Source: an uncultured Gammaproteobacteria bacterium
Lineage (GTDB): Bacteria > Pseudomonadota > Gammaproteobacteria > Steroidobacterales > JBCCMA01
Reading direction: 5' to 3'
DNA length: 64,000 nucleotides
NCBI GenBank assembly: GCA_964639265.1
Contig: CAZXCL010000004.1
Span: 20,900 to 84,899, forward strand
Each line of letters begins with the position of its first letter. The first letter of the stretch is position 1. The position numbers and the translations under genes were made by a program. Shown here in pieces: positions 3,356 to 57,319 of this stretch. The notes beneath the pieces are model-generated. The model ran no database searches, was not told the DNA's origin, and saw only the letters and a list, made by a program, of their open reading frames with translations.

Positions 3356-3585
3356 AGTGGCCGGTGCCTCGAGACAGGTCATCGAATGCCGGCGGGTGTT
3401 TTGCCCGGGATCGCGCGCAAAAGGCGTGCGGTTTGAAATGTGGGCGTCGCAGCTCGCCGCGTTGTCTGAACACATATGTGCCAGTTGCTATAAACATATA
3501 ACATTGGTGCATATCGCGCCAGAGAAATATTATGTTGTATCCGCGATATTCTTTAGGCGTGTAAAATACTGATAACGTTGAAAAA

Positions 3586-4413: not shown

Positions 4414-6867
4414 CTAGAATCGAGCGCGAAGACGCATGCCATAGTTGCGCGGGTACAGATACGAAGTCTGGACCACGTCGTCGCCATTGTTGTTGCCACG
4501 CGCGAGAACATCGGCGTCCTCGATGTTCTCAATGAAGGCTTCCACGGTGTACATGCCATCCGCTGAGTCCCACATGACTCGCAGATCGGTTTTGGTGAAC
4601 GAGTCCTGCTGATGCGACGGATCGTTGGCCAGCAGGTTGGAGGTGTTGTAGCCGTCCGAGTAGTAGGTTTGCAGATACGGTGTGATCGTGCCCTTGTCGC
4701 CCATGTCGATCAGATAGGCGGCACTGGCGCCCAGCGTGATTTCCGGTGACCACGGGGTTGTGACCCCGGCCTGGTCAATGAAGCCGCGGACTTCGCCGTT
4801 GAACAGCTGATACGGGTTGCTCTGGCCAAACGTGCCGAACTCCGAATCCAGATAGGCGAGGGTGCCGGTAAGGGTCCAGCGATCGGTCGGGACCCAGGTG
4901 GCGTCGAACTCAAGGCCCCAGGCTTCGATGTCACCACCGTTATCCGAAAAGGTGAGCACGATGCCGGTGTTGGGATCCAGCCGCTGCCGCTGCGTGAGCA
5001 GGTTGGTGTACTCGGTAAAGTGCAGCGCACCGTTAATCTGCAGAGTGTTGTCACGCAGTACGCTGCGGAAGCCAAACTCGATGACCTGCGACTCCTGTTC
5101 GTCCGTCGAGGTGGTCGTGCTGGCCGAGCCTGACAGATAGCCTGTAGAGGCTGTGCCATAGATCATGGTGTCGTCGTTCATGTCGTATTCGACACCGGCG
5201 CGCCAAGTGAAGTTGTCGAACTCGGGGATGTTGTCCGTGTCCTGAATCGTGTTGGCGCTGGTGATCGCGTCGCTTGCGCCGCAGTTGTAGGTAAACAGGT
5301 CGCGGGCATTCTCGGGCAGCACCGCAGGCGACGTGCCGGCAATGCCGTCGATAACGTTCACGACACGATCGACCGTGCCGTCATTGTTTTCATCGCCGGT
5401 GAAGTTGGAGCCGCCGCAGCTCGCTGATTTTTCCTCGTCGTTGTAGCGCAGGCCACCGATGAGGCGCAGCTGGTCATTGACCGAGTACTCCACCTGGCTG
5501 TAAATGCCCAGGTAATCCGTGTCGATCTGGACCGCGTTCGCGAAGAAGCCGCCGAGCACGGTGGCGTCAGACACCAGCGGCGTTCCCGAAAGAATCGTGA
5601 ATTCACCCAAGTCAGGAATGGTGACAGTGGGCCGTACAGAATCATCGCGCACGGTCTGCTGGTAGATATAGAACGAGTTGAAGTCTTCCACTGACGAGAC
5701 GTACAGCCCTGCGGTCCACTGCAGGGGACCATCGTGCGTGCTGGTGAGCTGGATCTCCTGAGCAAGGCCCTCCGAAGCTTCCTGGTAGCCACCGTTGGAG
5801 TTTTGCGACGGACTGAAATCAAAGTCGAAATTGATGTCGTTGTTGAAGTCGTTGTAGGCCGTAATCGACTTGAGGCTGAAGTTGTCGAAGTCGTAGGTGA
5901 AGGTCAGTGAGAATTCGTCGTCCTCGAGATCAACCGGGCGCACATAGTCCTGAGAGATGCGCCAGGGGTCGCCGCCGGGGCCGTTGGATGCCGGACCGAG
6001 GCCGCCGGAGCCGCGGACCGGGTTGGCGCAGTTGCGAACCGAGCCAAACGGGTCGGTCAGGCCGTCTGGCGTTTCGTTGCGGCACAAGAAGGTGTAACCA
6101 AACAGACCGGCCTCATTGCCGTCCTCTTCGATGCTCGTGGCGCGGAAGATCAGTTCGGCCCGGTCGCTCGGATTCCAAAGAGCAGTAAAGCGAATGCCTT
6201 TGTCGTCCTGCGCACCGATGTCCGGTCCGGCCAGGTTCTGGATGTAGCCGTCGCTCTTGTCCAGATAGCCAGCGATGCGCACGCCAAAATTGTCGGTGAT
6301 TGGTGCGTTGAAATAGCCTTCGCTGCGGACGCGGTCAAAGCGCTGCGGGCTGATGTCGATACCACCAGAAAATTCCTCGAGGTCAGGCGTGTTGGTGTAG
6401 ACATTCAATGCGCCGGCAAATGTGTTGCGGCCATACAGCGTGCCCTGCGGTCCGCGCAGAAATTCAACGTTGGAAACGTCGAAAAAGCCGCGTGTCTGCT
6501 GCGACGCTCGCGCTTTGTAGATGCCGTCGACAAACGCGCCGACAATCGAGCTGTTGTCACCGAAGGTGTTACTGGAGTTGGCGCCGCGAACATTGAACTT
6601 GGCGTCATTACCCACGAACGCATAGTTCAGGCCGGGGACCAGAAGTTCGAGTCGCGATACGTCCGAAATGCCGCCAAACTGCAGCGCCTCTTCGCCGAGT
6701 GCTGTCACAGAGACACTGACGTCCTGCAGGCTCTCTTCGCGTCGTTCGGCCGTCACGACGACCTCTTCAAGTTGAGCTCGAGCACCGAGCGAACCGGCCA
6801 GCAATGTGGCCGCAATGGCGCAGGACAACGCTTTGCGCCCCGCAATTGGTGAATACAGTCGTGTCAT
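4414..6867 (-). CDS. TonB-dependent receptor (2)
   Basis: Start MTRLYSP; 'LEEVVVTAERREESLQDV'; 'VEFLRGPQGTLYGRNTFAG'; C-terminal Phe; the ORF track's upstream extension is not credible. Confidence 0.92.
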   Translation of the reverse strand: MTRLYSPIAGRKALSCAIAATLLAGSLGARAQLEEVVVTAERREESLQDVSVSVTALGEEALQFGGISDVSRLELLVPGLNYAFVGNDAKFNVRGANSSNTFGDNSSIVGAFVDGIYKARASQQTRGFFDVSNVEFLRGPQGTLYGRNTFAGALNVYTNTPDLEEFSGGIDISPQRFDRVRSEGYFNAPITDNFGVRIAGYLDKSDGYIQNLAGPDIGAQDDKGIRFTALWNPSDRAELIFRATSIEEDGNEAGLFGYTFLCRNETPDGLTDPFGSVRNCANPVRGSGGLGPASNGPGGDPWRISQDYVRPVDLEDDEFSLTFTYDFDNFSLKSITAYNDFNNDINFDFDFSPSQNSNGGYQEASEGLAQEIQLTSTHDGPLQWTAGLYVSSVEDFNSFYIYQQTVRDDSVRPTVTIPDLGEFTILSGTPLVSDATVLGGFFANAVQIDTDYLGIYSQVEYSVNDQLRLIGGLRYNDEEKSASCGGSNFTGDENNDGTVDRVVNVIDGIAGTSPAVLPENARDLFTYNCGASDAITSANTIQDTDNIPEFDNFTWRAGVEYDMNDDTMIYGTASTGYLSGSASTTTSTDEQESQVIEFGFRSVLRDNTLQINGALHFTEYTNLLTQRQRLDPNTGIVLTFSDNGGDIEAWGLEFDATWVPTDRWTLTGTLAYLDSEFGTFGQSNPYQLFNGEVRGFIDQAGVTTPWSPEITLGASAAYLIDMGDKGTITPYLQTYYSDGYNTSNLLANDPSHQQDSFTKTDLRVMWDSADGMYTVEAFIENIEDADVLARGNNNGDDVVQTSYLYPRNYGMRLRARF

Positions 6868-6948
6868 CAGTAACCCCCGGGGAAGTCGCCGTCTGTTCGC
6901 GTGCAAACGGCTCAGCCAATTCAAAAGTGCAGGATCAGTCTGCGTCGA

Positions 6949-6965
6949 TTGTACTCCGAATGCAA
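6949..6965. promoter_or_regulatory. Putative LacI-family operator, site A
   Basis: TTGTACTCCGAATGCAA upstream of TonB receptor 2; matches four other sites in the cluster. Confidence 0.65.
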
Positions 6966-7108
6966 GCCAATGCCGTGCCGGTGCGTCGGAGATTTTCCTC
7001 TGATTCTCGCGAGTTACCGCCAGGATGCCCGGAAATTGGGCGCTTACCGGCACCACATGGTGGCGCCACGGCAGGTTATGTCGCTGACTCCGAAGTACAA
7101 ACGCGGGT

Positions 7109-8146
7109 CTAGGCTGCGCCGCCAGACTGTTCCCGCATGCGGGCAAACAGGTCCACCCCCATTTGTGCGAACAGGTGCACCATGTCGACAAACACCCAGT
7201 TTTCGAGATAGCGCTCCCCCGACCTTTTCCAGAAGTCGAGGCCGTTGATGGCAAGCGCGTTGCCGGTGGCGGCCACACCCAGGTATTCACCGCGATGGGT
7301 CGCTTTGACGCCTGACCAGCCCGGCGAGCCGCTGTATTCGCCTTCACCAATCAGTGCGGTCAGGTCCAGCACGCGTCGATCCGGAAAAGCGTTTAACCAA
7401 GGCCCCTGATGAAGCTGCTGGAAGTCGGCGAGGCTCAGGCAGGCGCCAATGCCGCCGGGACCGTACCAGGCGATGTCTGGCTCAAAAAAGTCAGCCATGC
7501 CCATGCTCTTGAGGTCCGATTCGTCGTAGTCGTTGAGTGTGCCGAACACGAAGCGGCGAATATGATCGAGCGTATAGTCGCTGACTGCGTCGTCTTGTTG
7601 GGCCAGCAACACGCCGTCATTTGCCTTCGGTGCGGGGTAGAGACCTGGCCTGCCGCGCGAGGGTGGCAACACGTTTATACCGGCCTGCTCCATGAGATCG
7701 ACAAAGTCGAACAGTGCGTAGCTCTCGACTATGCGCCCGTTTTCCAGGCGCGCAAATTCGCCAAAGCGCATGGCGATGTCTTCGCCGTTGGGCGGAATGC
7801 CCAGATACGGTTGTTCGAAGCGGCCATGGAAGGTGCCCGTCGCGCCAACCCAATAGTGGCCTTCGTTGCGACCGTCTACACGTCCACTTGAAAGACCGCC
7901 CATGAAGATAAACGACTCCCGCTGGAGATTTTTGAACGCACGGCGCATGGGGCGCCAAACACTATCCACATAGGCCTTGGCGCCGATGACCGTGCCAATA
8001 GGTTGGGGACCGTGCCAGGGCGCTTGCGGATCCAGGTGCGGCTCGAGCAGGGCGAGCAGGTCGCCATCGTCTGCGCGGTCCATGGCATTCCACAGGTCCC
8101 ACACCTGTTGCTTGTTGCGCTGATTCAGATCGCTGTGATCGCTCAT
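7109..8146 (-). CDS. Two-domain SnoaL-like ester cyclase (NTF2 fold)
   Basis: 'GTFHGRFEQPYLGIPPNG', 'WYGPGGIG', 'THRGEYLGVAATG', 'ENWVFVD'. Confidence 0.85.
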   Translation of the reverse strand: MSDHSDLNQRNKQQVWDLWNAMDRADDGDLLALLEPHLDPQAPWHGPQPIGTVIGAKAYVDSVWRPMRRAFKNLQRESFIFMGGLSSGRVDGRNEGHYWVGATGTFHGRFEQPYLGIPPNGEDIAMRFGEFARLENGRIVESYALFDFVDLMEQAGINVLPPSRGRPGLYPAPKANDGVLLAQQDDAVSDYTLDHIRRFVFGTLNDYDESDLKSMGMADFFEPDIAWYGPGGIGACLSLADFQQLHQGPWLNAFPDRRVLDLTALIGEGEYSGSPGWSGVKATHRGEYLGVAATGNALAINGLDFWKRSGERYLENWVFVDMVHLFAQMGVDLFARMREQSGGAA

Positions 8147-8670
8147 GGCGTGTCTTCCTTTGCTGCAGGGCGTTGATCGTATTGCTCCCAGCCGTGTCCG
8201 TTGAACGGGTCGATCCCAAGCTGTTGCATCACGTGTGGGAAATCGACCATGACCCAGTTGTCGACGATCTTGCCGTCCACCACTTTCCAGAAGTCCATGT
8301 AGCGAATCTCAACGCGTTTGCCGGTCGGGGCGATGCCCATGAAAGTGCCGCTGTGGGTGGCTTCCTGACGACCAAACGCTGCGCACCACTGACCTTGGGT
8401 AAGACGCGCCTCGTCGATGCACACCTTGTCCGAGAACGCCGCCTGAAACGGCCGCTGCCAGTTGTCCTGAAATTCTCGCAGGCCGTTTTTTACGCCGCAG
8501 CCGGCATTGCCCATCCAGCGAAACGTCGGCGCGAAAAAACGATCCATGTGTTCGATGTCGTGATCATTGAGACCATCGACCATGGCGTCGATGACGCCGA
8601 GCGTTTCAGCCGTTTTCGTCAGGTCGTTGTCCCGTGTCAGCTCGCCCTGCTCGGGGCGTGAGCCCTTCAT
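8143..8670 (-). CDS. Single-domain SnoaL-like ester cyclase
   Basis: 'THSGTFMGIAPTGKRVEIRYMDFW', 'DNWVMVD'; start moved to ATG 8670; 4-bp overlap with next gene. Confidence 0.85.
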   Translation of the reverse strand: MKGSRPEQGELTRDNDLTKTAETLGVIDAMVDGLNDHDIEHMDRFFAPTFRWMGNAGCGVKNGLREFQDNWQRPFQAAFSDKVCIDEARLTQGQWCAAFGRQEATHSGTFMGIAPTGKRVEIRYMDFWKVVDGKIVDNWVMVDFPHVMQQLGIDPFNGHGWEQYDQRPAAKEDTP

Positions 8671-8772
8671 GCTGCGCTCCGATTGCCGCTGCCTGGCCAG
8701 GCACGGCGGGGCGACGTGGGTGGGTCGGGAAAAGTCGTCATTCTGGCATCCTCCAGCGGTGATCGGTTGTTT

Positions 8773-8788
8773 TTGCATTCGCAGTCAA
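8773..8788. promoter_or_regulatory. Putative LacI-family operator, site B
   Basis: TTGCATTCGCAGTCAA (reverse complement TTGACTGCGAATGCAA) in the divergent intergenic region. Confidence 0.55.
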
Positions 8789-8831
8789 CATGAGTAACAT
8801 GTGGCTTTCCCGGGCGCAATGGTGGTATCTG

Positions 8832-9866
8832 ATGACGGTGGACACCGACAAAATCCAGAAGGCCAAAGACGTCGTGCGCGCCTGCCATCGCGACGTGGAC
8901 GGCTGCGCTGACGATCAGCTCGAGGCGACGCTCGCTCGACACGTTAGCGCCCACTACCGCTGGCGCGGCATGCGTCCTTTCTACGAGCAAGCCGGCTCCG
9001 AGGCCGTGGTCGCTGCGTTCTGGCGGCCGTTACGTCAGGCATTTACGGCGCTTACTCGACGCGAGGATGTGTTCATCGCCGGGCACAACGACGCATCGCA
9101 TGATGGTGCCGAAATCTGGACGGCCAGCATGGGGCATTTTGTTGGGTTGTTCGACGCGCCATGGCTGGGTATTCCGGCTACCGGCCGCATGGCTGCGCTG
9201 CGCTACGCGCAGTTCGATTGTGTTGCCGACGGCGCCATCGAGAGTAGCGCGCTTTTTTGCGACGTCATCGGGGTGATGCAGCAGGCCGGCTGCTATCCGT
9301 TACCAGAGCAAACCGGCGCAGCACATATGTATCCCGGGCCGCGCACTCACGACGGAATTCATCTGGCGGCAACCGATCCGCAGCATGGGCACGACACGCT
9401 TGCGCTGATCAATCGCATGATCGACGACTTGAGCGCCTTGAACGACAGCGGCGAGGATCACTGCTCGCCTGAGTATCTGGCGCGTTGCTGGCATCGTGAC
9501 ATGGCCTGGTACGGCCCGGCAGGTATTGGTTCAACCATGACGATTGAGCGTTACCAGCAACAACACCAGTATCCGTTTCGCGAACAGCTCAGTGACAAAC
9601 GCTTTCTCGGGCACGTCGCGCGCATCGCGGAGGGCAATTACGGCGCGTTCTTTGGCTGGCCCAATCTGACCAATCGTTCCACTGGCGGTTTTCTGGGATT
9701 GCCGGCCAGCGCCACGGCGTGCGAGATGCGTGTGGTCGATGTGTTTCGTCGCGATGGCGATCGGTTGGCAGAGAACTGGGTGTTTATCGATCTGCCGCAC
9801 TATCTGGCGCAACAGGGGCTTGACGTGCTCGATCGATTGCAACGGCTGCGTCAGGGCGGCGGGTGA
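8832..9866 (+). CDS. Two-domain SnoaL-like ester cyclase
   Basis: 'WLGIPATG', 'WYGPAGIG', 'ENWVFID'; paralogue of 7109-8146. Confidence 0.85.
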   Translation: MTVDTDKIQKAKDVVRACHRDVDGCADDQLEATLARHVSAHYRWRGMRPFYEQAGSEAVVAAFWRPLRQAFTALTRREDVFIAGHNDASHDGAEIWTASMGHFVGLFDAPWLGIPATGRMAALRYAQFDCVADGAIESSALFCDVIGVMQQAGCYPLPEQTGAAHMYPGPRTHDGIHLAATDPQHGHDTLALINRMIDDLSALNDSGEDHCSPEYLARCWHRDMAWYGPAGIGSTMTIERYQQQHQYPFREQLSDKRFLGHVARIAEGNYGAFFGWPNLTNRSTGGFLGLPASATACEMRVVDVFRRDGDRLAENWVFIDLPHYLAQQGLDVLDRLQRLRQGGG

Positions 9867-11185
9867 GGTTCATTGCTTCGTTGTGGCTTGCGCTGGCACT
9901 GTGTGCCTGCGCAAGCACCTTGCCGCGTGCTGCGAGTGACTACACGTCGCTTTCAGACTTTTCAATCACGGCGCTGCGTGAACGCACTTACGGTTCGCCG
10001 CTGGGTGTCGAGCAGGTTGTCCGTTCCGAGGTGTATCCATCGTCACTGGTGTCCTACCAGTCTGACGGTTTGCGCGTCTACGCCCGCTTGGATTTGCCCG
10101 CTACCGACGGACTGCCTGAGGGCTATCCGGTTGTCGTGTTTTTGCACGGCTGGCGCGGCATCGACGCGGCGCCCTCCCTGGGCTTTTACTACGACCCTGA
10201 ATCGTATTACCACGACATGGTCAACGCCTATCGCGAGGCGGGCTTTGCCGTCATCACACCCGGCTATCGCGGCCACGGTACGGTCAACGGCCGGCCCGCC
10301 GACGGGCTTGATGACATGGCACGGTGGGATCAGGGCAGCTACCTGATTCCGGTGCTCTACGCCGTGGACGTTATGAATCTGCTCGACGGGCTGGCGTCTG
10401 TACATCCCGGCAAACTCGATCTTTCACGGGTGAATCTCGTGGGCCATTCGCAGGGTGGTGACGCCGCGCTTGTGGTTGCCGCGGTGGCCAGCGGAGGATC
10501 AGGTCTCAGACAGCGGATCAACGCCGTCTCGATATGGAATGGACTGGTCGCACCGCGTCTGGAGCAGGCGCAGGTGTATGCGCTTTTGCAAAACAGTGCG
10601 ACTGCGTTTCTCGCAGGGGATGGCACATGGACCGGTGCGGCGCAGGGCGCAAATGGACAGGTCAATCGGGAGTTTGTGTTTGGCTGGCCGCCAGAGTGGA
10701 TTGAAACGCCCCATCCGTCAGAGTGGACGTGGCAGCACGACACCTGGGGCAAGAGCGCGCATGAGGCGCTCGAAGAGGCAATGGGCAAGTTGTACGGCGC
10801 CGTCAACGACAACCTGCCAGCGCTTGCCGACGCGCGCTACGTCGTTTCGCGCCACGCCGATGGGTCGCCGGTGGTCCAGCATGATCCTCGGGTGGCGTCG
10901 GGACTGGCGGCCACGCACGCCGCACATAGGCCCGGTGACCTCGCTGTACCGGTAAATGTGCATTTTTCTGATCGCGATATCTATTCTCTTGTGCGCTGGA
11001 ATCGGCAGCTGTGCGCGGCGATCAAGCAGGCGGGTGGTGCCTGCCGTGCTTATGAATATCCTGGCAACACGCATCGGCTGCGCTTGAGTGAGCGAGCATG
11101 GTTTTCCCAAAAGCAGCACCGTGAAGGTTTTGCCGACGCGGTCAGTCGCGACGTCGTGCTCTTTCGGACTAGATCAGAGCGTTAA
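9863..11185 (+). CDS. Alpha/beta hydrolase lipoprotein (peptidase S9/esterase-like)
   Basis: Lipobox LCAC; 'VVFLHGW', 'PGYRGHG', nucleophile motif GHSQGG, 'YPGNTH'. Confidence 0.8.
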   Translation: MRFIASLWLALALCACASTLPRAASDYTSLSDFSITALRERTYGSPLGVEQVVRSEVYPSSLVSYQSDGLRVYARLDLPATDGLPEGYPVVVFLHGWRGIDAAPSLGFYYDPESYYHDMVNAYREAGFAVITPGYRGHGTVNGRPADGLDDMARWDQGSYLIPVLYAVDVMNLLDGLASVHPGKLDLSRVNLVGHSQGGDAALVVAAVASGGSGLRQRINAVSIWNGLVAPRLEQAQVYALLQNSATAFLAGDGTWTGAAQGANGQVNREFVFGWPPEWIETPHPSEWTWQHDTWGKSAHEALEEAMGKLYGAVNDNLPALADARYVVSRHADGSPVVQHDPRVASGLAATHAAHRPGDLAVPVNVHFSDRDIYSLVRWNRQLCAAIKQAGGACRAYEYPGNTHRLRLSERAWFSQKQHREGFADAVSRDVVLFRTRSER

Positions 11186-12776
11186 ACAGCCACAGCAGGC
11201 CCATGCAAAACGCAAAGTAGCCAATCATCAGCAGGCTGATCGAATCGAGCCTGCCGGCCACGTTGTACCAGCCGCCCACTTTTTCCGGTAGGCCCTTTTC
11301 GCGATGCAGTTTGAGCTGCCCGGGCACGCTATGCGGTGACCATTGTTCCTGTTTGCCATCGAGAATCAGGCTGGCAGCCCAGGCGACGACGATGTTGGCG
11401 CTGGCGCCGATCAGCGTGAACCACGGCCAGGCGATCGATGTGCGCGTGGCCACATACCACACCAGAATGAAGCCGGCCGCGACACCGATAAGAAGTCCAC
11501 GTTCGGTCGTATGGCGAGAGAAAAACCCCATGCCGTACATGGCGAGTTTGGCGCCGACAAAGTAGGAGCCAAGCTTGCTGAGGATCTCAAGAATCGAGCC
11601 CTCCGTGCGCGAAAACAAAATCGCCGGAATGATGATCAATACGGCCCACAGCAACGTGAATCCGCGCGATACCTTCAGCAATTGCTGATCCGAGGCATCG
11701 GCTTTGACGTAGCGCTGATAAAAATCCACGGTCGCCACGGTGGCCATTGAGTTGAGCGAGGAATCCAGCGTCGACATCGACGCCGCCATCACCGCCGCCG
11801 CAATCAGTCCCATCAAACCGGGCAGGCCGTACTCGGCGGCAAACTCGAGAATGATGGTGTTGCCGTTGTCAAATTCGCGGCCGTCGTAATAGGCGAAAAG
11901 CAGTACGCCGAGAACGATGAAAATGAAGTAGATAAACGGCGAGACGAAACCCATCATCAGATAGGATTTTTTCGCGTCGCCGATGTTTTTCGCTGCCAGC
12001 GTTCGCTGCGCCATCATCTGGTTCACGCCATACACCGTCACGTGGAAGATCGTCATCGCAAAAATGCCGGACCAGACGGTGGAAACTTCGGTGAAATCAA
12101 AATTGAAATTGAACGGATCAGTTTTGCCCTGAGCCTTGAGCGCAATCAGGGTGTCGTGTAGCGGCATCGGTAGTCGATCGATGAGTGCGTACAAGATGAT
12201 GCCGGCGCCCACAAACAGAATGATTGCCTGTACCACGTCGGTCCAGATCACGGCCGCGATACCGCCCATCATGGTGTAGATCAGTGCAATGATCGTTACG
12301 ATGAAAATGGCATACAGCACATCGATGCCGGTGATGAACTGCAAGACAAGCGACGTTGCGTACAAGATCGCCGCGGCGCTGAAGCCCTGCGAGATCAGGA
12401 AAATGGTCGCGATGACTGAGCGCGACTTGGAGCCAAATCGCCGCTCTTGATAGTCATAGATTGACGCCACACCGCTGTTGTAGAAGAACGGCAGGAACAG
12501 CGTGATTACCAGAACGATAACCAGCGGATAGTTCATGTGGATCAGGATGACCGACATGCCTTCGGTGTATGACCACGCGGGTCCACCAAGAAACGACAGT
12601 GCACTGACGTAGGTCGCGACAACGGAAACACCAATGGCCCACCACGGTGTGTCGCGTCGACCCAGCGCATAGTCTTGCGCTGTTTCCACTCGACGCCCGA
12701 GCACGAAGCCCAACACCAGATTGCCCAGAATGTAGACGATAAGAATCGTCCAGTTCAGTGTGCCAAATTCTGCCAT
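11169..12776 (-). CDS. Sodium:solute symporter (SSS family)
   Basis: Many hydrophobic segments; 'SALSFLGGP', 'GGIAAVIWTDVVQ', 'NQMMAQR', 'AASMSTLDSSLNS'. Confidence 0.92.
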   Translation of the reverse strand: MAEFGTLNWTILIVYILGNLVLGFVLGRRVETAQDYALGRRDTPWWAIGVSVVATYVSALSFLGGPAWSYTEGMSVILIHMNYPLVIVLVITLFLPFFYNSGVASIYDYQERRFGSKSRSVIATIFLISQGFSAAAILYATSLVLQFITGIDVLYAIFIVTIIALIYTMMGGIAAVIWTDVVQAIILFVGAGIILYALIDRLPMPLHDTLIALKAQGKTDPFNFNFDFTEVSTVWSGIFAMTIFHVTVYGVNQMMAQRTLAAKNIGDAKKSYLMMGFVSPFIYFIFIVLGVLLFAYYDGREFDNGNTIILEFAAEYGLPGLMGLIAAAVMAASMSTLDSSLNSMATVATVDFYQRYVKADASDQQLLKVSRGFTLLWAVLIIIPAILFSRTEGSILEILSKLGSYFVGAKLAMYGMGFFSRHTTERGLLIGVAAGFILVWYVATRTSIAWPWFTLIGASANIVVAWAASLILDGKQEQWSPHSVPGQLKLHREKGLPEKVGGWYNVAGRLDSISLLMIGYFAFCMGLLWLFNALI

Positions 12777-12807
12777 GCTGCTACCTGAGTGTTAGTGCGA
12801 AGGATGC

Positions 12808-13542: not shown

Positions 13543-13555
13543 GTCAGGCTCCAGA

Positions 13556-13571
13556 TTGCATGCGGATGCAA
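13556..13571. promoter_or_regulatory. Putative LacI-family operator, site C (SDR/lacI divergent region)
   Basis: Near-perfect CG-centred palindrome TTGCATGCGGATGCAA. Confidence 0.7.
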
Positions 13572-13627
13572 TATTGCCTAACATCATTGCTGAATACCGA
13601 CGGCACTTCAACAACAGGGCGACATAC

Positions 13628-14671
13628 TTGGGCGAAGAATCCAGCGACGACAAAGCGCCGCGGCAAACTCGCAAGCGCGCCAACTCTTACGACGTCGCGC
13701 GTCTTGCTGGCGTTTCGCAGTCTGCAGTGTCGCGCGTTTTTCAGCCAGGCGCCAGTGCCTCCAAGGAAATGCGCAGTCGCGTTCTCAAGGCGGCCAAGAA
13801 GCTGGGTTATCGGCCCAATGCCATCGCGCGTGGCTTGATTACCCAACGCTCGGACATGGTCGCCGTGCTCATCTCGGTGCAGACCAATCTCTACTACCCC
13901 GAAGTGCTGGTGCAGCTAACCAAGCGTTTCTCCGAACGCGGTGTACGTGTTTTGCTGTTTGCCCTTGAGCATGAGGGTGACATTGAATCCACGCTTGAAC
14001 AGGTGTTGCGCTATCGCGTGGACGGTGTCGTGACGGCTGCCATGTTGTCGCCCGAGCAGCTGGCGACAATCGAATCGGTCGATATCCCTGTGGTGTTTTT
14101 CAACCGCACGCTGGCCGATGCGCCGGTCAACTCGGTGCGCTGTGATCAGGAGGAAGGTGAGCGCTGGCTGGTGCGCCAATTGCACGAAGCGGGTCATCGC
14201 CGCTTTGCCATTGTTACCGGCCCGGATGATTCGCCCGTGAGCACGGAACGCACCCGCGGCGCGACGCGCATGCTGCATGAGCTGGGTGTCAGAGATTTTC
14301 GCGTCGTGAACGGCGACTACAGTTACGCGAGTGGGCGTACGTGCCTCGCGCAGCTTATGGCCTCCGCAGAAGGCGCACCCGATGCGGTGATTGCCGCGAA
14401 TGATGCGATGGCGATCGGGTGTATCGATGAGGCGCGTGCGAAGTTCGGGCTGCGCGTTCCTGAGGACCTGTCAGTGGTGGGGTTCGACGGCATCGGCCCA
14501 TCCGCGTTCGATGCCTACGCCCTCACGACCATTCGCCAGCCGGTGGCGCGTATGACCGACGCCACCGTTTCGATGTTGCTTGATCGAATTGAAAACCCCG
14601 ATCTGGCGCCGGAGAAACGCGTGTTTTCCGGTGAGCGTCGTGCGGGGCGCTCGGCGCGGCTGAGCACGTAG
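13628..14671 (+). CDS. LacI-family transcriptional regulator
   Basis: 'YDVARLAGVSQSAVSRVF', 'LGYRPNAIARGL', 'VPEDLSVVGFDG', 'LTTIRQP'; TTG start is approximate. Confidence 0.93.
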   Translation: MGEESSDDKAPRQTRKRANSYDVARLAGVSQSAVSRVFQPGASASKEMRSRVLKAAKKLGYRPNAIARGLITQRSDMVAVLISVQTNLYYPEVLVQLTKRFSERGVRVLLFALEHEGDIESTLEQVLRYRVDGVVTAAMLSPEQLATIESVDIPVVFFNRTLADAPVNSVRCDQEEGERWLVRQLHEAGHRRFAIVTGPDDSPVSTERTRGATRMLHELGVRDFRVVNGDYSYASGRTCLAQLMASAEGAPDAVIAANDAMAIGCIDEARAKFGLRVPEDLSVVGFDGIGPSAFDAYALTTIRQPVARMTDATVSMLLDRIENPDLAPEKRVFSGERRAGRSARLST

Positions 14672-14705
14672 ATTCCAAGCAAAGTAACACAACGGGCGTA
14701 GTGCA

Positions 14706-15851
14706 ATGCAGATCAGTCGTGACCGAATCCTGACCACTCACGTGGGCAGCCTGCCCCGATCAGCCGATGTGACCGACACGGTGTTTGCGCTTGAAAAGGG
14801 CGACACGGTAGCGAACGCCGACGCGATCTTCAGCGCTGCGGTGGATGCCGTGGTCAAGCGTCAGGTGGACGTTGGCGTTGACGTGGTCAGTGACGGTGAG
14901 ATGAGCAAGATCAGCTATGCGACCTATATCAAGGATCGCATTAGTGGTTTTGACGGAGACAGTGAGCGCGATCCACCCAGCGATCTGCAGGAGTTTCCGG
15001 GCTTTCTTGAGCGCCAGGCGCAGTCGGGCGGTACGCCCAGCTATCGTCGGCCATGCTGCGTGGGAGATATCCAGGTCAAGGACACCGGGCCCGTTGAGGC
15101 GGATCTGGCCAACATGCGTCGCGCGATTGCAGCGCACTCGCCGCACGAGGGATTCATGAACGCGGCCTCCCCGGGTGTTATTGCTCTGTTCCAGCCTAAT
15201 CATCACTACCCGTCGCATGAGGCCTATCTGGCGGCACTCGCCGACGCCATGGCGTATGAGTACAAAGCGATCGTCGACGCCGGTCTGGTGTTGCAAATCG
15301 ACTCTCCTGATCTTGGGCTCGGACGACACATGCTGTTCAAGGGCAAGCCCGACGAGGACTACGTGCGACTTGCGTCCGCCCACGTCGAGGCCCTCAATCA
15401 CGCGTTGCGCGATGTGCCCAAAGACCGCGTGCGGTTGCACGTGTGCTGGGGCAATTACGAAGGGCCGCATCACCACGACGCACCCATGTCGCTCGTTTTG
15501 CCCGTGGCGCTCAAGGCCGACGTTGGCGCGCTGCTGTTTGAATCGGCTAACCCGCGTCATGCGCACGAGTGGGCTACGTTTGCTGATGCTTCGTTACCCG
15601 ACGATCTGGTGCTCGTGCCGGGTGTGATCGATTCGACTACCAACTTTGTCGAGCACCCCGAACTGGTTGCGCAGCGACTGATTCAGTTTGCAAACATCGT
15701 GGGGCGCGAGCGGGTGATCGCCGGCACCGACTGCGGCTTTTCCACGTTTGCGGGCTTTGGCTCGGTGGATGAAGATATTGTTTACGCCAAGCTCGGCAGT
15801 CTGGTCGAGGGTGCGGCATTGGCGAGCCGGCAGCTCTGGGGTGGTCCATGA
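14706..15851 (+). CDS. Cobalamin-independent methionine synthase II family (single-barrel MetE-like zinc enzyme)
   Basis: 'THVGSLPR', 'SDGE', zinc ligands in 'HVCWGN', 'FESAN', 'TDCGF'. Confidence 0.88.
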   Translation: MQISRDRILTTHVGSLPRSADVTDTVFALEKGDTVANADAIFSAAVDAVVKRQVDVGVDVVSDGEMSKISYATYIKDRISGFDGDSERDPPSDLQEFPGFLERQAQSGGTPSYRRPCCVGDIQVKDTGPVEADLANMRRAIAAHSPHEGFMNAASPGVIALFQPNHHYPSHEAYLAALADAMAYEYKAIVDAGLVLQIDSPDLGLGRHMLFKGKPDEDYVRLASAHVEALNHALRDVPKDRVRLHVCWGNYEGPHHHDAPMSLVLPVALKADVGALLFESANPRHAHEWATFADASLPDDLVLVPGVIDSTTNFVEHPELVAQRLIQFANIVGRERVIAGTDCGFSTFAGFGSVDEDIVYAKLGSLVEGAALASRQLWGGP

Positions 15852-16609
15852 GTTTGAGCGCATCCGCGTTTCGCGCGGCGATTGTCGGGCGCGAACTGGT
15901 CGTCGGCACATTTCTCAAAACGCCGTCGTCGATCATGTGCGAGGTGTTCGCGCACAGTGAGCTCGATGTTCTGTGTCTTGACGCCGAACATGCGCCGTTT
16001 GGTCATCTTCAAATTGACCAGTGCGTGGCCGCACTGCGGGCCGCACGGCGACCGTCGCTGGTGCGCGTGCCCGATCACTCGGAGACATCCGTGCGCAATG
16101 CGCTCGATTGTGGCGCGACGGGTATTCTGGTGCCGCACGTGCACAGCGCCGAGCAGGCACAACACATCGCGCGCGCGGCCCATTTCGGTCGAGGAGGTCG
16201 TGGATACGCCGGCTCGACCCGTGCCGCCGGGCTTGGCACCAAGCGCATGGGTGATCACCTGAAAGACAGCGCCGAACAAACCACGGTGATTGTGCAGATC
16301 GAAGACCCCGAAGCGCTTGGCAACGTGGCGCAGATCGCCGCCGTCGACAACGTCGATGCTCTTTTTGTCGGGCGCATCGATTTGGCCGTGTCACTGGGCC
16401 TCGATGCGTCTTCGCCAGAACTGCTCGAGATTGTTGCGAAGATCTGTGCGGATGCCGGTGATACCTGTGTCGGCATGTTTACGCCGTCGCTGGATGAGTT
16501 GCCGCGCTGGCGCGAAGCCGGTGCCAGCTTGTTTTTGCTCGGCTCCGATCACGCGCTGTTCCTCGACGCAGCGAACTCACTCGCGCGCAAGGTGCGCGCG
16601 GCGACCTAG
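15848..16609 (+). CDS. HpcH/HpaI aldolase family protein
   Basis: 'DAEHAP', 'LVRVP', 'VQIE', 'FVGRIDL'. Confidence 0.88.
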   Translation: MSLSASAFRAAIVGRELVVGTFLKTPSSIMCEVFAHSELDVLCLDAEHAPFGHLQIDQCVAALRAARRPSLVRVPDHSETSVRNALDCGATGILVPHVHSAEQAQHIARAAHFGRGGRGYAGSTRAAGLGTKRMGDHLKDSAEQTTVIVQIEDPEALGNVAQIAAVDNVDALFVGRIDLAVSLGLDASSPELLEIVAKICADAGDTCVGMFTPSLDELPRWREAGASLFLLGSDHALFLDAANSLARKVRAAT

Positions 16610-17532
16610 AGCGGTTCGAGTTCGGTCAGTCGATAAAAGCGCAGGGCGTTGTTGACGAATACATCGTTGCGCTGCGCGGCATCCAGATCTGTCGTCAGAG
16701 CTTCGAAAGCATCGTAGAGTTGCGCGTAGCTCGCGTGCAGTTTGTCAACCGGAAAGTTCGAGCCAAACATGCAACGCTGTGGCCCGAACACCTCGAGGCA
16801 GGTCTCGATCAGGGGGCTTAAGGACTGCACAGACCAGTTGTGATCGAACATGCCGAACCCCGACATTTTGCACACGGTGCGCGGGCGTTCGGCCAGGCGC
16901 TGCAGGCCGGCGCGCCAGTGGGCGAGCCCCGCGGGTGACTGATCCCACGGTGAGCCGGCGTGACACAGGGCCACATCCAGATCCGGAACGGCCTCCAGTG
17001 CGTCACTGACCGCGGCCATTTGTGTTGGGATGAGCTGCAGATCGAACGACAGATTGCGCTCGGCGAGTAGTGCAAGACCGCGTCGCCACTGTGGGTTGGC
17101 GGGCAACGCACCGCTGCCGGTTTGCGCATCTTCTTCGGCCGAGCGCCCAACAATCTGGCGCACACCACGCAGCTGCGGCGCTTCAGCGTGAGCATCCAGT
17201 GTGGATTCGGCGGCGGGTTTTTCCAGATCGCAATAGGCGACGATGGCGCTGGGCAAGCCCGTGCGCTCGGCGATGCTCTGAAGCCAGCGCGTCTCGTCGA
17301 CTTCGCGTCCGGGTGCAGCGCCCACCTGTATATGCACCGAGCCCAGCAAGTCAAAATGCTCGGCATCTGTGCGCAAATCCGCCGGCAGATAGTTTTTAGC
17401 GATAGGGGCTGGGTCGCCGAAGAAACGCCGCACTCCCTTGGCCATAAGCCACGGATACTCCACGGCATTGAGGTCCCACAAATGGTGATGGGCATCGACA
17501 ATGCGTCGCTTGGTGGAGGTTGAATCACTCAT
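16606..17532 (-). CDS. Amidohydrolase_2 family protein (sugar-lactonase-like)
   Basis: 'DAHHHLW', 'LSFDLQ', 'HAGSP', 'MFGSNFPVD'. Confidence 0.87.
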   Translation of the reverse strand: MSDSTSTKRRIVDAHHHLWDLNAVEYPWLMAKGVRRFFGDPAPIAKNYLPADLRTDAEHFDLLGSVHIQVGAAPGREVDETRWLQSIAERTGLPSAIVAYCDLEKPAAESTLDAHAEAPQLRGVRQIVGRSAEEDAQTGSGALPANPQWRRGLALLAERNLSFDLQLIPTQMAAVSDALEAVPDLDVALCHAGSPWDQSPAGLAHWRAGLQRLAERPRTVCKMSGFGMFDHNWSVQSLSPLIETCLEVFGPQRCMFGSNFPVDKLHASYAQLYDAFEALTTDLDAAQRNDVFVNNALRFYRLTELEPL

Positions 17533-17541
17533 GGCAATCCT

Positions 17542-18501: not shown

Positions 18502-18530
18502 CGTAGTTTTCCGAGCTGATTCGAGTGCCA

Positions 18531-18547
18531 TTGTACTTCGGATGCAA
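18531..18547. promoter_or_regulatory. Putative LacI-family operator, site D
   Basis: TTGTACTTCGGATGCAA. Confidence 0.7.
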
Positions 18548-18621
18548 AGCAACACAAGCTGTATATTACGGGTGTTGGGGCCAGACGAGCCGCGTTGCCT
18601 GGGTGATGCCTTGAATCAGTA

Positions 18622-18637
18622 TTGCATTCGAAGTACA
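18622..18637. promoter_or_regulatory. Putative LacI-family operator, site E (inverted relative to D)
   Basis: TTGCATTCGAAGTACA = reverse complement TGTACTTCGAATGCAA. Confidence 0.7.
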
Positions 18638-18671
18638 TTCAAAGCTCTATCAATCACGGCGCATTGGCGCA

Positions 18672-19703
18672 ATGTCTGAACCCGAACATCCCTCCACCGA
18701 CGTGCCGTCTGCGTTGACAGACTGTTTCGTTCGCTACGACGAGTTGCGACCGTGCACCACTGCGTTTATCGATACGCGCACGCCCGGGAGTGAGAAGAAA
18801 GAGAACTTCACGATCATCGGTCCAGGCGTATCGGAGAGCCCGGACCAGCACGTGCACATCAACGTGCCTCACGGCTTCAACATTGGCGCGGCGCGGCAGC
18901 CACCTGGCTGCATCAATTCGCAGCACAGCCACGAAACCGCCGAAGTCTTTTTTGTGCATTCGGGCACATGGGCCTTCACGCTGGGTGAAAAGGCGACCGA
19001 CGGTACGGTGGTCTTGCATCCCGGTGACACGATTTCTATCCCGACCCAGGTCTTCCGCGGCTTTGAAAATGTCGGTGACGACACGGGGCTTATTTTTGCG
19101 GTGCTTGGTGGTGATGATCCCGGGCACGTGATGTGGGCGCCAGATGTGTTCGAGCGAGCAGCCACCTACGGCCTGATCTTGCTCGATGACGGCTCGTTGG
19201 TGGACACCACGCGAGGTGAGGCTGTCCCGGAGGGCAAGACTCCGCAGGCACCAACGAGCGCCGAGCAGGTCGCCGCATTGCGCAGCATGACGGCGGATGA
19301 TCTGGCCGCGTGCGTGGTGTCGCAGGATGGCATGACGTGGCGCGCTGCTCGGGCGGCCGTCCAGGGTGTAGAGGAAGCCGCCATCATTGGTATGGGTAAC
19401 CGTGACATCCGCGAACCGGCTGCTCCGCTCGACTGGTCGCACGGCTTCTGCGCGGTGCGTATGCGCGTTGCATCGGATGGAACGACACAGTGGCATCGTC
19501 GCGATGAGGAAGAGGTCATTATCGTGCATCGAGGGCAGCTGAGCGTGCACACCGCGGATGGCGCGCTTGAGTTGCGCCAGGGGGATGTACTGACCGTGCC
19601 GCCCGGCATGATGAGAAAATTTTGTGGCACCGGTCAGGCTGCCGCTGATGCGTTCGTGGTTCGGCGTGGTGATTGCCCGCAACCACTGCATCTGGAATCG
19701 TAA
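18672..19703 (+). CDS. Bicupin domain protein
   Basis: Cupin motifs '[13 protein letters not shown]...[10 protein letters not shown]' and '[12 protein letters not shown]...[12 protein letters not shown]'. Confidence 0.82.
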
Positions 19704-19728
19704 AACACGACAATCGAGGATCTGGATC

Positions 19729-21003
19729 GTGATCAAGGTAATCAAAGAAGGCATTGATACCACCGTTGCCGCAGAGATGGACGGCAAGGTGCGCGCTACC
19801 GTGGAGAGTATTCTCGAGGACATCGGGGCACGCGGTGATGCGGCCGTGCGGGCGTTGTCGCAGAAATTTGACAGCTGGTCTCCCGAGGCGTTTCGACTCA
19901 GCGACGACGAAATAAAGGCCTGTGTTGAGCGGCTGCCGCAGCGCTCCATTGACGATATTCGTTACGCACAAACCCAGATTCGTCGTTTTGCCGAGATTCA
20001 GAAAGCGGCTTTGCAGGACGTGGAGGTCGAGACCATTCCAGGCGTTGTTCTTGGCCACAAGAATCTGCCGGTAAACAGCGTTGGTTGCTACGTGCCCGGT
20101 GGCAAGTATCCGATGGTCGCGTCGGCGCACATGAGTGTGCTGACGGCGAAAGTGGCGGGCGTCAAACGTGTGATTGCGTGCGCGCCGCCTTATCAGGGTA
20201 AGCCGAGCGACGCCATCGTCGCGGCGATGCACATGGCTGGGGCCGATGAGATTTACTGCCTTGGCGGTGTGCAGGCTGTGGGCGCAATGGCGCTGGGCAC
20301 CCAGACCATCGACAGTGTCGATATGATTGTCGGACCGGGAAATGCGTTTGTCGCAGAAGCCAAGCGCCAGCTTTACGGACGCGTCGGTATCGATCTTTTC
20401 GCCGGACCGACCGAGACGCTGATCATCGCCGACGAGACCTGCGACGGCGAGATGGCCGCCACCGATTTGCTGGGCCAGGCCGAGCATGGCGTTAACTCAC
20501 CTGCGATTTTGCTGACGACGTCGGCCAAGCTCGTCGAAGATACGCAGGTAGAAATCGAGCGCCAGCTCAAGACGCTGGCCACGGCAGAGGTGGCTGGGCA
20601 GGCCTGGCGCGATTACGGCCAGATCATTCTATGTGACACCGATGAGGAGCTGTTGGCTGAGGCCGATCGCATCGCCAGTGAGCACGTTCAGGTGCTCACC
20701 CGTGATCCGGATTACTTTCTCGATAACATGACCAACTACGGCGCACTGTTCCTTGGGCCGGAAACCAACGTGGCCTACGGCGACAAGGTCATTGGTACCA
20801 ACCACACGTTGCCGACGAAGCTCGCCGCGCGCTACACCGGCGGATTGTGGGTCGGCAAGTTTATCAAGACCTGCACCTATCAGAAGGTAACGCCCGAGGC
20901 GACGGTCGAGGTGGGTGAATACTGCTCCAGGCTGTGCGAACTCGAAGGGTTTGCCGGTCATCAGGCGCAGGCCGATCTGCGCGTCGCGCGCTACAAGACC
21001 TGA
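19729..21003 (+). CDS. Histidinol dehydrogenase-family protein, HpsN-like paralogue (probably not biosynthetic HisD)
   Basis: 'CYVPGG', '[12 protein letters not shown]', 'QAEHG', '[13 protein letters not shown]'; GAGGA RBS before GTG 19729. Confidence 0.88.
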
Positions 21004-57315: not shown

Positions 57316-57319
57316 CACC

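Follow-up and report, generated by a model that had tools for sequence, protein, structure and literature searches.

Besides histidinol dehydrogenase (HisD) itself, enzymes of the HisD fold include HpsN, a 3-dehydrogenase of 2,3-dihydroxypropane-1-sulfonate (DHPS) from Cupriavidus pinatubonensis. According to the part of PMC11382572 on which we draw, HpsN binds zinc through Gln, His, Asp and a His contributed by the partner chain, and carries a catalytic Glu-His pair. A loop motif separates HpsN (G-R-Y-A/S-H) from HisD (G-S-A-P-L), and the final His of the HpsN motif binds the resting zinc and then the sulfonate; in the same part of that paper, 728 of 1000 homologues were set aside by the authors for lacking hpsOP neighbours. 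An HpsN-like HisD paralogue, HisDp, is encoded in a cluster of catabolic genes within a 64,000-nucleotide stretch of contig CAZXCL010000004.1 from an uncultured gammaproteobacterium (assembly GCA_964639265.1; the whole stretch is called the window). Pfam and NCBIfam scans found in this cluster all the gene types that a sequence-only reading of the window had named: a TonB-dependent receptor, a sodium:solute symporter (SSS), a LacI-family repressor, four SnoaL genes, a short-chain dehydrogenase (SDR), a MetE-like zinc enzyme, an HpcH-type aldolase, an Amidohydro_2 hydrolase, a bicupin, an esterase-like hydrolase and HisDp (Table 1).

From the HpsNOP sulfonate clusters the locus differs in its quite different gene neighbourhood and in having no desulfonating enzyme. 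With the lower pathway of protocatechuate 4,5-cleavage, gallate and 3-O-methylgallate (LigI, LigU, LigJ, LigK; MgaC, MgaD) it shares a lactonase or esterase, the precedent of an NTF2-type tautomerase, and a terminal class II pyruvate aldolase, the RraA type included. It differs from that pathway in possessing neither a LigAB- or GalA-type dioxygenase nor a hydratase, in a lactonase that is nearer to the sugar lactonases, and in the addition of the HpsN-like and MetE-like enzymes, LacI and the SSS. The non-phosphorylative routes of the L-fucose/L-rhamnose type have in common with it an SDR, an Amidohydro_2 lactonase and an HpcH-family aldolase; however, the cluster has no enolase-type or IlvD-type dehydratase, all its scores lie under the equivalog cut-offs, and its core of MetE-like protein, bicupin, tandem SnoaL proteins and HisDp is foreign to those routes. 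The MetE-like protein resembles MetE, 'core-MetE' and epoxyalkane:coenzyme M (CoM) transferase (PF01717) in its MetE-type barrel, which contains an invariant H-x-C together with a second cysteine; it differs from MetE in being a single domain without the folate-binding half and in being embedded in a catabolic regulon. The literature searched, which lacks most subscription journals, holds no description of the gene set or of bacterial catabolism of mycosporine-like amino acids, and no NCBIfam equivalog model matches the set, in agreement with the earlier impression that the combination is not a characterised pathway.

The observations set out below suggest that the cluster is one LacI-repressed regulon serving to scavenge and catabolise a small anionic hydroxylated compound, probably cyclic and O-methylated. 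The case for this reading as a whole seems to us evenly poised. The cluster would then be a substrate-specific catabolic regulon whose chemistry appears undescribed.

Comparative evidence argues for the single LacI-repressed regulon. An operator with the consensus TTGCAT-NCGN-ATGCAA is present in all promoter regions of the cluster and is found again in related loci. It forms the perfect palindrome ATTGCATGCGGATGCAAT between the SDR and LacI genes and is present as the half-site TTGCATTCGGA about 90 nucleotides (nt) upstream of the receptor gene. The half-site TTGCATNCGNA has six matches in the window, all of them in cluster promoter regions (the receptor upstream region and three divergent regions), with a chance expectation of 0.96; six matches were reached in 1 of 100 shuffles. 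Across 1.38 Mb, composed of part of the window and 80 related loci, TTGCATNCGNA has 205 site starts, compared with 7 in the reversed sequence and 3 to 15 in five shuffles, and 196 of the 205 lie not more than 250 nt from the 5' end of a cluster-family gene (bicupin 46, receptor 37, HisDp 36, SnoaL D 34, SnoaL A/C 30, SDR 28, LacI 27). One site lies in the LacI/HisDp intergenic region of Microbacterium, and none was found in the loci of Bacteroidota, Acidimicrobiales and Granulicella. The three divergent promoter regions proposed earlier are borne out, and the proposal of a single import-and-degrade system gains from a shared operator in genes that are also conserved together. The genes form six or seven transcription units, depending on whether the operator between units 1 and 2 marks a separate promoter; the two units, which lie on the same strand, are counted apart here because this operator stands between them.

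The related loci were obtained in a one-genome-per-species scan seeded with the MetE-like protein, which gave at least 592 relatives, of which 80 loci with flanks of up to 10 kb were kept, 43 of them with full 10-kb flanks. Synteny was assessed by tblastn and by all-against-all clustering of open reading frames (ORFs) at E < 1e-20 and coverage of at least 60%, and the counts depend on these thresholds. Genes of the related loci are plain ORFs checked against Pfam; a caller based on third-position GC content was dropped because it missed real genes. Related genomes in these counts are not independent samples. At least five of the eight core families are kept in 29 of the 43 full-flank loci (counts for each family are given in Table 1). 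The SnoaL A/B/C-type family comprises 93 ORFs, including the three of the window, and a lipoprotein hydrolase of either the AXE1 or the S9/DLH type is present in 14 of the 43. Carriers belong to the Gamma- and Alphaproteobacteria, Bacteroidota, Actinomycetota and Acidobacteriota (Woeseiaceae, Halieaceae, Granulosicoccus, Sphingomonadales, Caulobacterales, Hyphomonadaceae, Polaribacter, Flammeovirgaceae, Acidimicrobiales and Granulicella), and according to the record titles they come from seawater, sponge, kelp, lichen, glacier-stream and lake habitats. Cultured strains among them are Pseudohalioglobus sediminis NY5, Parasphingorhabdus marina DSM 22363, Sphingomonas yunnanensis YIM 3 and Microbacterium sp. 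SA39. In Polaribacter the whole gene set forms a single one-strand operon behind a SusD gene.

A second sample, free of the seed bias, consisted of 401 Gammaproteobacteria genomes, in 400 of which HisDp was scored. Orthologues of the MetE-like protein (at least 55% identity) occur in 12 of the 401 and of HisDp (at least 63% identity) in 12 of the 400. Ten genomes have both; in eight of these the two genes lie within 10 kb on the same contig, in one they are on different contigs of a fragmented assembly, and in one they are 612 kb apart. The cluster is present in about 3% of the sampled gammaproteobacterial genomes, among them streamlined pelagic genomes of 2.0-2.5 Mb. The clustering of these genes is not due to chance, and the expectation that they would be conserved together in other genomes is borne out across phyla, both by synteny and by co-occurrence.

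The surroundings of the cluster vary among the carriers. A protein combining TPR repeats with a sulfotransferase domain stands beside the cluster's TonB receptor in 10 of the 80 loci (L015:2705-4576, L014:1396-3297 and eight more). In soil-type carriers a further, divergent HisD paralogue is encoded within the cluster or close to it (Granulicella, L069:11926-13248; Sphingomonas yunnanensis, L055:10854-12161; Microbacterium, L090:6717-8033), with a GRFPL motif in two of the three and an amidase or nitrilase-type hydrolase nearby; this paralogue might oxidise an amino-alcohol side chain. Other rare accessory genes encode a gamma-glutamyltransferase (three loci) and a serine dehydratase (four loci). 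In Parasphingorhabdus marina (L074:5640-9262) a PrpF gene, an RraA-like aldolase, a DUF1932 dehydrogenase-like gene and a second Amidohydro_2 gene abut the cluster; we take PrpF, the RraA-like aldolase and Amidohydro_2 to be the families of LigU, LigK and LigJ. Microbacterium sp. SA39 has a separate locus with HisDp-SDR-HpcH, LacI, a tandem SnoaL protein, the bicupin, a small hydrolase and a CUT1 ATP-binding cassette (ABC) system. The MetE-like gene of this strain (L061:7454-16085) is accompanied by LacI, a GFO/IDH/MocA oxidoreductase, DUF993, two xylose-isomerase-like TIM barrels and a glycerate kinase, near galE/K/T, which is a cyclitol- or sugar-type context.

Among solved structures HisDp is closest to HpsN of C. 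pinatubonensis (CpHpsN, 8v35), with 399 bits compared with 260 bits for true HisD structures. The two proteins share the HisD fold and, by eye, about half of the aligned residues, and HisDp keeps the zinc ligands, the Glu-His pair and an Asp-Lys pair (GQAEHG, SEH, GDK and the C-terminal His). Its loop motif, GKYPM, is neither that of HpsN nor that of HisD. The form G[KR][YF]P[LM] is present in all 54 cluster copies and the HpsN motif in none, whereas GRY[AS]H is present in all 15 fetched members of a group at 46-50% identity. In a maximum-likelihood tree (quick search) the HisDp and HpsN groups are split by a branch with a value of 100 in the Shimodaira-Hasegawa-like approximate likelihood ratio test (SH-aLRT), and four sampled genomes contain canonical HpsN and HisDp side by side. 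The genome of the window has a true hisD on contig C32 (504.7 bits) and no canonical HpsN. HisDp passes TIGR00069 (457 bits, cut-off 243.8), which evidently also captures HpsN-type paralogues; this generic hisD domain model, which misnames HisDp, is the only NCBIfam equivalog model whose cut-off any protein of the cluster reaches. Orthologues bear the public names 'histidinol dehydrogenase' or, in many Joint Genome Institute (JGI) records, 'sulfopropanediol 3-dehydrogenase'.

As judged from its motif and its place in the tree, HisDp falls into a third branch within the HisD/HpsN family. Most likely it retains the ability to convert a primary alcohol adjacent to a carbinol into the acid, on a substrate that is not a sulfonate. 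A sulfonate is unlikely because the sulfonate-binding His is absent from all 54 copies, and the substrate may be anionic, since the Lys is kept. The sulfur-bearing substrate that the sequence-only reading had considered possible gains no support from these results, given the loss of the His, the coexistence with canonical HpsN and the lack of a desulfonating enzyme in the cluster. The homologues set aside in the earlier HpsN survey may include sequences of the HisDp type.

The MetE-like protein is the best-conserved member of the set, with 62-80% identity across phyla. It is a single barrel of 381 residues of the MetE C-terminal type, matched by PF01717 only; it aligns to residues 465-692 of the 789-residue chain of a fungal MetE, and its best solved relative is 1ypx, all structure matches being remote. 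In all 74 family members H245, C247, E279, S15, D63-G64-E65 and Q197/D199 are invariant, as are the family-specific stretches WGNYEGPH and NPRH, and the column aligned to the cysteine of TDCGF in the window's protein is likewise marked invariant. The invariant residues presumably correspond to the zinc ligands of MetE (His-x-Cys ... Glu ... Cys) and to its homocysteine-binding positions (Ser, Asp-Gly-Glu, Gln-x-Asp). The protein remains under every NCBIfam methionine-synthase cut-off (best 90.6 bits, cut-off 406), and the label 'epoxyalkane-CoM transferase' attached to it is an automatic cluster name only. The part of PMC12366255 used here states that 'core' MetE forms without the folate domain use other methyl donors. 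From the invariance of the zinc- and amino-acid-binding residues and from this core-MetE precedent we infer an alkyl transferase that depends on a thiol, in the simplest case a methyl transferase, and that would act on the catabolic substrate.

The terminal step of the pathway can be recognised with the help of a gene replacement. The HpcH aldolase matches PF03328 with 95.6 bits over residues 20-240 of 253; its best model is GarL (135 bits, cut-off 407), keto-deoxy-rhamnonate aldolase is also among its best models, and none of the GarL, HpaI and YfaU equivalogs reaches its cut-off. In L030, L040 and G067 (a 2.0-Mb genome), none of which has HpcH, the cluster contains an RraA-like aldolase, and L011 has both. 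This non-orthologous replacement supports the view that the pathway ends in a class II pyruvate aldol cleavage. Aldolases of the RraA type acting on 4-hydroxy-4-methyl-2-oxoglutarate and 4-carboxy-4-hydroxy-2-oxoadipate (HMG/CHA aldolases) prefer 4-carboxy-4-hydroxy-2-oxo acids.

Two kinds of lactone-opening enzymes would precede this step. The Amidohydro_2 protein has a single NCBIfam match, L-fucono-1,5-lactonase NF052480 (134.8 bits, cut-off 400), its best solved relative is the L-fucono-1,5-lactonase 4dlf (88.6 bits), and neither LigI nor LigJ matched it; on these scores it is a relative, not a member, of that lactonase family. A small cytoplasmic hydrolase that is found in the related loci and not in the window best matches the 3-oxoadipate enol-lactonase PcaD. 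The only homologue of this small hydrolase in the genome of the window (contig C35, 49% identity) was considered as a regulon member and rejected: no exact operator lies nearby, and the three one-mismatch matches are below the chance expectation of 5.6. The best subfamily model of the SDR is glucose 1-dehydrogenase, with 193 bits and a cut-off of 215; the SDR gene often comes next after HisDp.

The bicupin residues H85, H87, E91 and R129 (HxHxxxE) are invariant in 36 of 36 sequences; Arg129 stands, as we understand the fold, where the last metal-binding His of a cupin usually sits. Its structural model has a mean predicted local distance difference test (pLDDT) value of 92.7, and its nearest folds are quercetinase, oxalate decarboxylase and MncA at a template modelling (TM) score of about 0.55. 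An AlphaFold model of SnoaL D (pLDDT 91.3) consists of two NTF2 domains and lies nearest to the tandem epoxide hydrolases Lsd19/MonB, the SnoaL-like cyclases and limonene epoxide hydrolase; in sequence SnoaL D has remote matches only among the solved structures, and the same sequence search gave no relative for the bicupin or SnoaL C. As three of the four SnoaL genes encode fusions of two domains, the cluster has seven SnoaL domains in total. The SnoaL proteins do not belong to the methyl-ester cyclase subfamily (NF033407, 38 bits, cut-off 200) and are assigned to SnoaL/NTF2 at the Pfam level only. SnoaL B is 74-84% identical to its counterparts in the Woeseiaceae loci.

Among solved structures the SSS is most like the sialic-acid carrier SiaT (5nv9, 165 bits); next in rank are the iodide carrier NIS and the glucose carrier vSGLT, and after them monocarboxylate and vitamin carriers. 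The place of the SSS is taken by major facilitator superfamily (MFS) carriers in 13 loci and by a CUT1 ABC system in some six others; the MFS carriers best match the aromatic-acid:H+ symporter, MhpT and other organic-anion models, at scores far below the cut-offs (118 compared with 418). The transporters point to a polar, probably carboxylated compound. The lipoprotein hydrolase has an N-terminal signal and an 'S-I-x-x-L-R' motif common to the S9/DLH-type lipoproteins of other loci, and the best model of the sulfatase is arylsulfatase.

If the proteins act as their families suggest, the process can be outlined in some detail. The compound would be taken up across the outer membrane by the TonB receptor, as its family and its operator indicate. 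In the periplasm the lipoprotein hydrolase, joined in Woeseiaceae by the Tat-exported sulfatase, would trim it, to judge from their signal peptides and families, and the sodium symporter, or the MFS or CUT1 ABC carriers of other lineages, would import the product. In the cytoplasm the tandem SnoaL proteins might then carry out acid/base steps on an enone or a ring, that is hydrolysis, tautomerisation or dehydration, as their fold would allow. The MetE-like enzyme, given its invariant residues, would move an alkyl group, most simply the methyl of a methoxy group, onto a thiol such as homocysteine, and the bicupin would open the ring. Lactone forms would be opened by the Amidohydro_2 protein and, in most relatives, by the PcaD-like small hydrolase. 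HisDp, by the known chemistry of its family, would convert the -CH2OH beside a carbinol of a non-sulfonated substrate into -COOH, and the class II pyruvate aldolase would finally release pyruvate together with an oxo-acid or aldehyde.

Our leading candidate for the substrate, and a tentative one that we would sooner expect to be replaced than confirmed, is the 2-methoxy-5-hydroxy-5-hydroxymethyl-cyclohexenone core of mycosporine-like amino acids, or 4-deoxygadusol. The sequence-only reading had proposed a probably cyclic or polyhydroxylated substrate, possibly from algae, and had named mycosporines among the candidates; these suggestions may be right, and of all single candidates mycosporines now seem to us the best. 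It is equally doubtful, though worth stating, that the regulon is the bacterial pathway for mycosporine-like amino acids, mycosporines and gadusol-type sunscreens. In the core ring of these compounds a methoxy enol ether and an enaminone or reductone system occur together with a C(OH)(CH2OH) centre that is flanked by two CH2 groups. Once the compound has been trimmed in the periplasm and imported, the SnoaL enzymes would strip the amino-acid substituents from the cyclohexenimine or cyclohexenone. The MetE-like enzyme would move the methyl of the C2 methoxy group to homocysteine, giving methionine. The bicupin would then cleave the resulting cyclic reductone with O2 to 4-hydroxy-4-hydroxymethyl-2-oxoadipate; acireductone dioxygenase and quercetinase cleave their own substrates with O2. 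Oxidation of the -CH2OH by HisDp would yield 4-carboxy-4-hydroxy-2-oxoadipate, and the HpcH or RraA-type aldolase would split this into pyruvate and oxaloacetate. 4-Carboxy-4-hydroxy-2-oxoadipate is a substrate of RraA-type aldolases. Such a route would give roles to the MetE-like protein, the bicupin, HisDp, the SnoaL proteins and both aldolase types. It is consistent with transporters of the carboxylate type, with a sulfonate-binding His that is lost while the Lys is kept, with the RraA replacement and with the habitats of the carriers, and it also fits the sulfatase, as sulfated forms of mycosporine-like compounds are known, and the rare accessory genes, which would deal with the amino-acid side chains.

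Several points weigh against the proposed regulon or against its mycosporine version. The order of the steps is deduced from protein families alone. The SnoaL folds give family-level information and nothing specific; the bicupin matches generic bicupins only, and quercetinases, although first among its folds, reach a TM score of only 0.55 at 13-15% identity. The SDR is without a clear role in the mycosporine route. Several families are often missing: of the 43 full-flank loci, 16 have the Amidohydro_2 protein and 20 the small hydrolase. The MetE-like gene stands apart from the remaining cluster in Microbacterium sp. SA39, and four of the 43 full-flank loci have no core family at all, so that this gene can occupy other contexts. 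The SDR and the Amidohydro_2 protein are most like a sugar 1-dehydrogenase and a sugar lactonase, LacI, SSS and CUT1 ABC systems usually serve sugars, and one locus contains an aldose 1-epimerase; together these favour a sugar over a carbocyclic ring.

The latter observations would suit a non-phosphorylative oxidative pathway for an O-methylated or deoxy sugar or sugar acid, which we regard as possible, though a minority view. The SDR would oxidise C1, the lactonase would open the lactone, and a dehydratase not recognised as such (the bicupin, a SnoaL protein or the MetE-like protein) would form a 2-keto-3-deoxy acid, from which the aldolase would produce pyruvate and a C3 aldehyde that the HpsN-like enzyme would oxidise to the acid. 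Besides the LacI-family regulator, the SGLT-like SSS, the CUT1 systems and the epimerase, this route would explain why the SDR falls just under the glucose 1-dehydrogenase cut-off, why the lactonase matches L-fucono-1,5-lactonase alone and why GarL and keto-deoxy-rhamnonate aldolase are the best models of the aldolase; the Microbacterium MetE-like gene, with its GFO oxidoreductase, two sugar-isomerase-type TIM barrels, LacI and glycerate kinase, is also in suitable company. However, the cluster contains no known aldonate dehydratase family, the Amidohydro_2 protein is found in only 32 of the 80 loci, and seven SnoaL domains and a bicupin are foreign to known sugar routes. By the preference of its family, the RraA-type aldolase found in place of HpcH speaks for a 4-carboxy substrate rather than a keto-deoxy sugar acid, and the solved structure nearest to the SSS is that of a carboxylate carrier.

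Somewhat less probable is a route for breaking down methoxylated phenolic acids (gallate, 3-O-methylgallate or syringate type), which are often present as esters or sulfates. The esterase and the arylsulfatase-like enzyme would free the acid, the MetE-like enzyme would O-demethylate it, the bicupin would cleave the ring, the small hydrolase and the lactonase would open methyl-ester or lactone intermediates, the SnoaL proteins would serve as tautomerases, and the aldolase would cleave a product like 4-carboxy-4-hydroxy-2-oxoadipate. The part of PMC12314914 used here describes a SnoaL-like protein, MgaD, as a predicted tautomerase in syringate catabolism. The resemblance of the 13 MFS carriers to the aromatic-acid:H+ symporter and MhpT, that of the small hydrolase to PcaD and that of the sulfatase to arylsulfatase would all agree with such a pathway, as would the RraA-like aldolases in place of HpcH and the PrpF, RraA-like and second Amidohydro_2 genes that abut the cluster of Parasphingorhabdus marina. 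Yet HisDp would have no obvious role in it despite being a core protein (31 of 43 full-flank loci), the cluster lacks a LigB-type or intradiol dioxygenase, and LacI, SSS and CUT1 ABC systems are unusual for aromatic acids. Moreover, the Amidohydro_2 protein matches fucono-lactonase rather than LigI or LigJ, and the MFS scores are far below the family cut-offs.

That the cluster serves DHPS or another C3-sulfonate, as its likeness to HpsN and the JGI names of many orthologues would have it, is very improbable. The closest solved relative of HisDp is indeed a DHPS-3-dehydrogenase, and an SDR gene follows canonical HpsN in three of four loci examined, as it often follows HisDp, but the window's SDR is only 33-35% identical to those SDRs. 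The motif counts (0 of 54 against 15 of 15), the fully supported branch and the presence of both enzyme kinds in four sampled genomes separate HisDp from HpsN. SuyAB, Xsc and CuyA-type genes are not in the cluster, and a search confined to positions 1-26000 of the window detected neither a zinc-dependent alcohol dehydrogenase nor any of these sulfolyase families there.

Kdo (3-deoxy-D-manno-octulosonic acid) or sialic-type acids, apiose, ascorbate, polyols, methyl-inositols, quinate esters and epoxides were set aside, each leaving at least two core enzymes without a role. The residual probability lies with readings beyond those proposed here. That several unrelated operons merely stand side by side, as six transcription units on both strands and the varying gene content might suggest, is scarcely credible in view of an operator shared by every cluster promoter region and found nowhere else in 64 kb, the position of 196 of 205 sites at the 5' ends of cluster-family genes, the co-occurrence and co-localisation in the 401-genome sample and the one-strand operon of Polaribacter.

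Table 1. Features of the cluster with their positions in the window, transcription units, and numbers of related loci in which each family was found
Feature	Position	Strand	Unit	Loci (of 80)	Full-flank loci (of 43)	Basis and remarks
TonB-dependent outer-membrane receptor	4414-6867	-	2	43	27	Plug and beta-barrel domains; listed ORF to 7350, signal peptide by eye near 6867
Operator half-site TTGCATTCGGA	6955-6965	-				upstream of receptor gene
SnoaL A, tandem two-domain SnoaL/NTF2	7109-8146	-	1	50 (A/C type)	35 (A/C type)	two SnoaL stretches (Pfam); no signal peptide
SnoaL B, single-domain	8143-~8670	-	1			listed ORF to 8778; start probably Met at residue 37
Divergent promoter region, SnoaL B / SnoaL C	8670-8790					
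Operator half-site	8773-8783	+				SnoaL B / SnoaL C region
SnoaL C, tandem	~8790-9866	+	3			Pfam; counted with SnoaL A
Alpha/beta hydrolase, esterase- or peptidase-like	9863-11185	+	3			Abhydrolase_1/AXE1 matches; lipoprotein-type signal by eye
SSS sodium:solute symporter	11169-12776	-	4	35	24	PF00474, TIGR00813
SDR	12808-13542	-	4	49	26	Pfam, NCBIfam
Divergent promoter region, SDR / LacI	13543-13625					
Perfect palindromic operator ATTGCATGCGGATGCAAT	13555-13572	.				between SDR and LacI genes
LacI-family repressor	~13626-14671	+	5	59	31	LacI helix-turn-helix and Peripla_BP; probable TTG start at 13626
MetE-like single-domain zinc alkyl(methyl)transferase (putative)	14706-15851	+	5			PF01717, 56 bits
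HpcH/HpaI-type class II pyruvate aldolase	15848-16609	+	5	47	24	PF03328; start overlaps MetE-like stop
Amidohydro_2 lactonase-type hydrolase	16606-17532	-	6	32	16	PF04909
SnoaL D, tandem	17542-~18531	-	6	52	32	Pfam
Divergent promoter region, SnoaL D / bicupin	18531-18671					
Two operator half-sites	18537-18547; 18622-18632	-; +				SnoaL D / bicupin region
Bicupin, putative metal-dependent ring-opening enzyme	18672-19703	+	7	57	36	two Cupin_2 stretches
HisDp, HpsN-like HisD paralogue	~19729-21003	+	7	51	31	PF00815, 465 bits
Sulfatase, exported	21024-23273	+	7	5		PF00884; twin-arginine signal and CxPxR motif by eye; accessory in Woeseiaceae-type clusters
Small cytoplasmic hydrolase (not in window)				44	20	

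Where a start codon in Table 1 was shifted, this was done by eye from the positions of domains and signal peptides. Several adjacent genes overlap by 4 nt, which suggests coupled translation, and no signal peptide was seen by eye in the SnoaL, MetE-like, bicupin and HisDp proteins. The cluster probably extends to position 23273, because the sulfatase gene begins 21 nt after HisDp on the same strand and has an orthologue in five of the 80 related loci. The longest ORF, 18654-19949 (-), which runs antisense to the bicupin and the start of HisDp and is longer than the real gene, was rejected as a gene, as its 431-residue translation matches no family and resembles arginine-rich junk. Antisense shadows of conserved genes also gave many false 'families' in the ORF clustering; these have no Pfam match.

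At the left edge of the cluster, a second TonB receptor gene (812-3475, -) and a gene for an NADPH-dependent F420-reductase-like protein (3586-4260, -) have no operator and are not conserved with the cluster. At the right edge, a flavin amine oxidase with an N-terminal extension of about 120 residues (23266-25011, -) converges on the sulfatase; it was left out of the cluster because it is found in none of the 80 related loci. Further along the window, 26171-26851 (+) encodes a CpeT/CpcT-family (DUF1001) protein, a family that we take to include bilin lyases of phycobiliproteins and that we would not expect in an apparent Woeseiaceae-type heterotroph. A TPR hybrid histidine kinase (35810-38482) adjoins a signalling protein of 1388 residues with Reg_prop, Y_Y_Y, PAS, GGDEF and EAL domains (38584-42750, -), and 56218-60698 (+) holds genes for 4-hydroxyphenylpyruvate dioxygenase, a fumarylacetoacetase-type hydrolase and then a bacteriophytochrome histidine kinase.

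Because the cluster is both widespread and tightly conserved, its substrate is probably a common natural product, the turnover of which has not yet been assigned to genes. The cluster would give functions to proteins that are now mislabelled 'histidinol dehydrogenase' or 'sulfopropanediol dehydrogenase', 'methionine synthase family' and 'ester cyclase'. With the new branch of the HisD/HpsN family set apart, surveys of marine DHPS cycling would stop counting HisDp as hpsN. If the substrate should prove to be the mycosporine core, the long-open fate of these abundant sunscreens would become testable in cultured strains.

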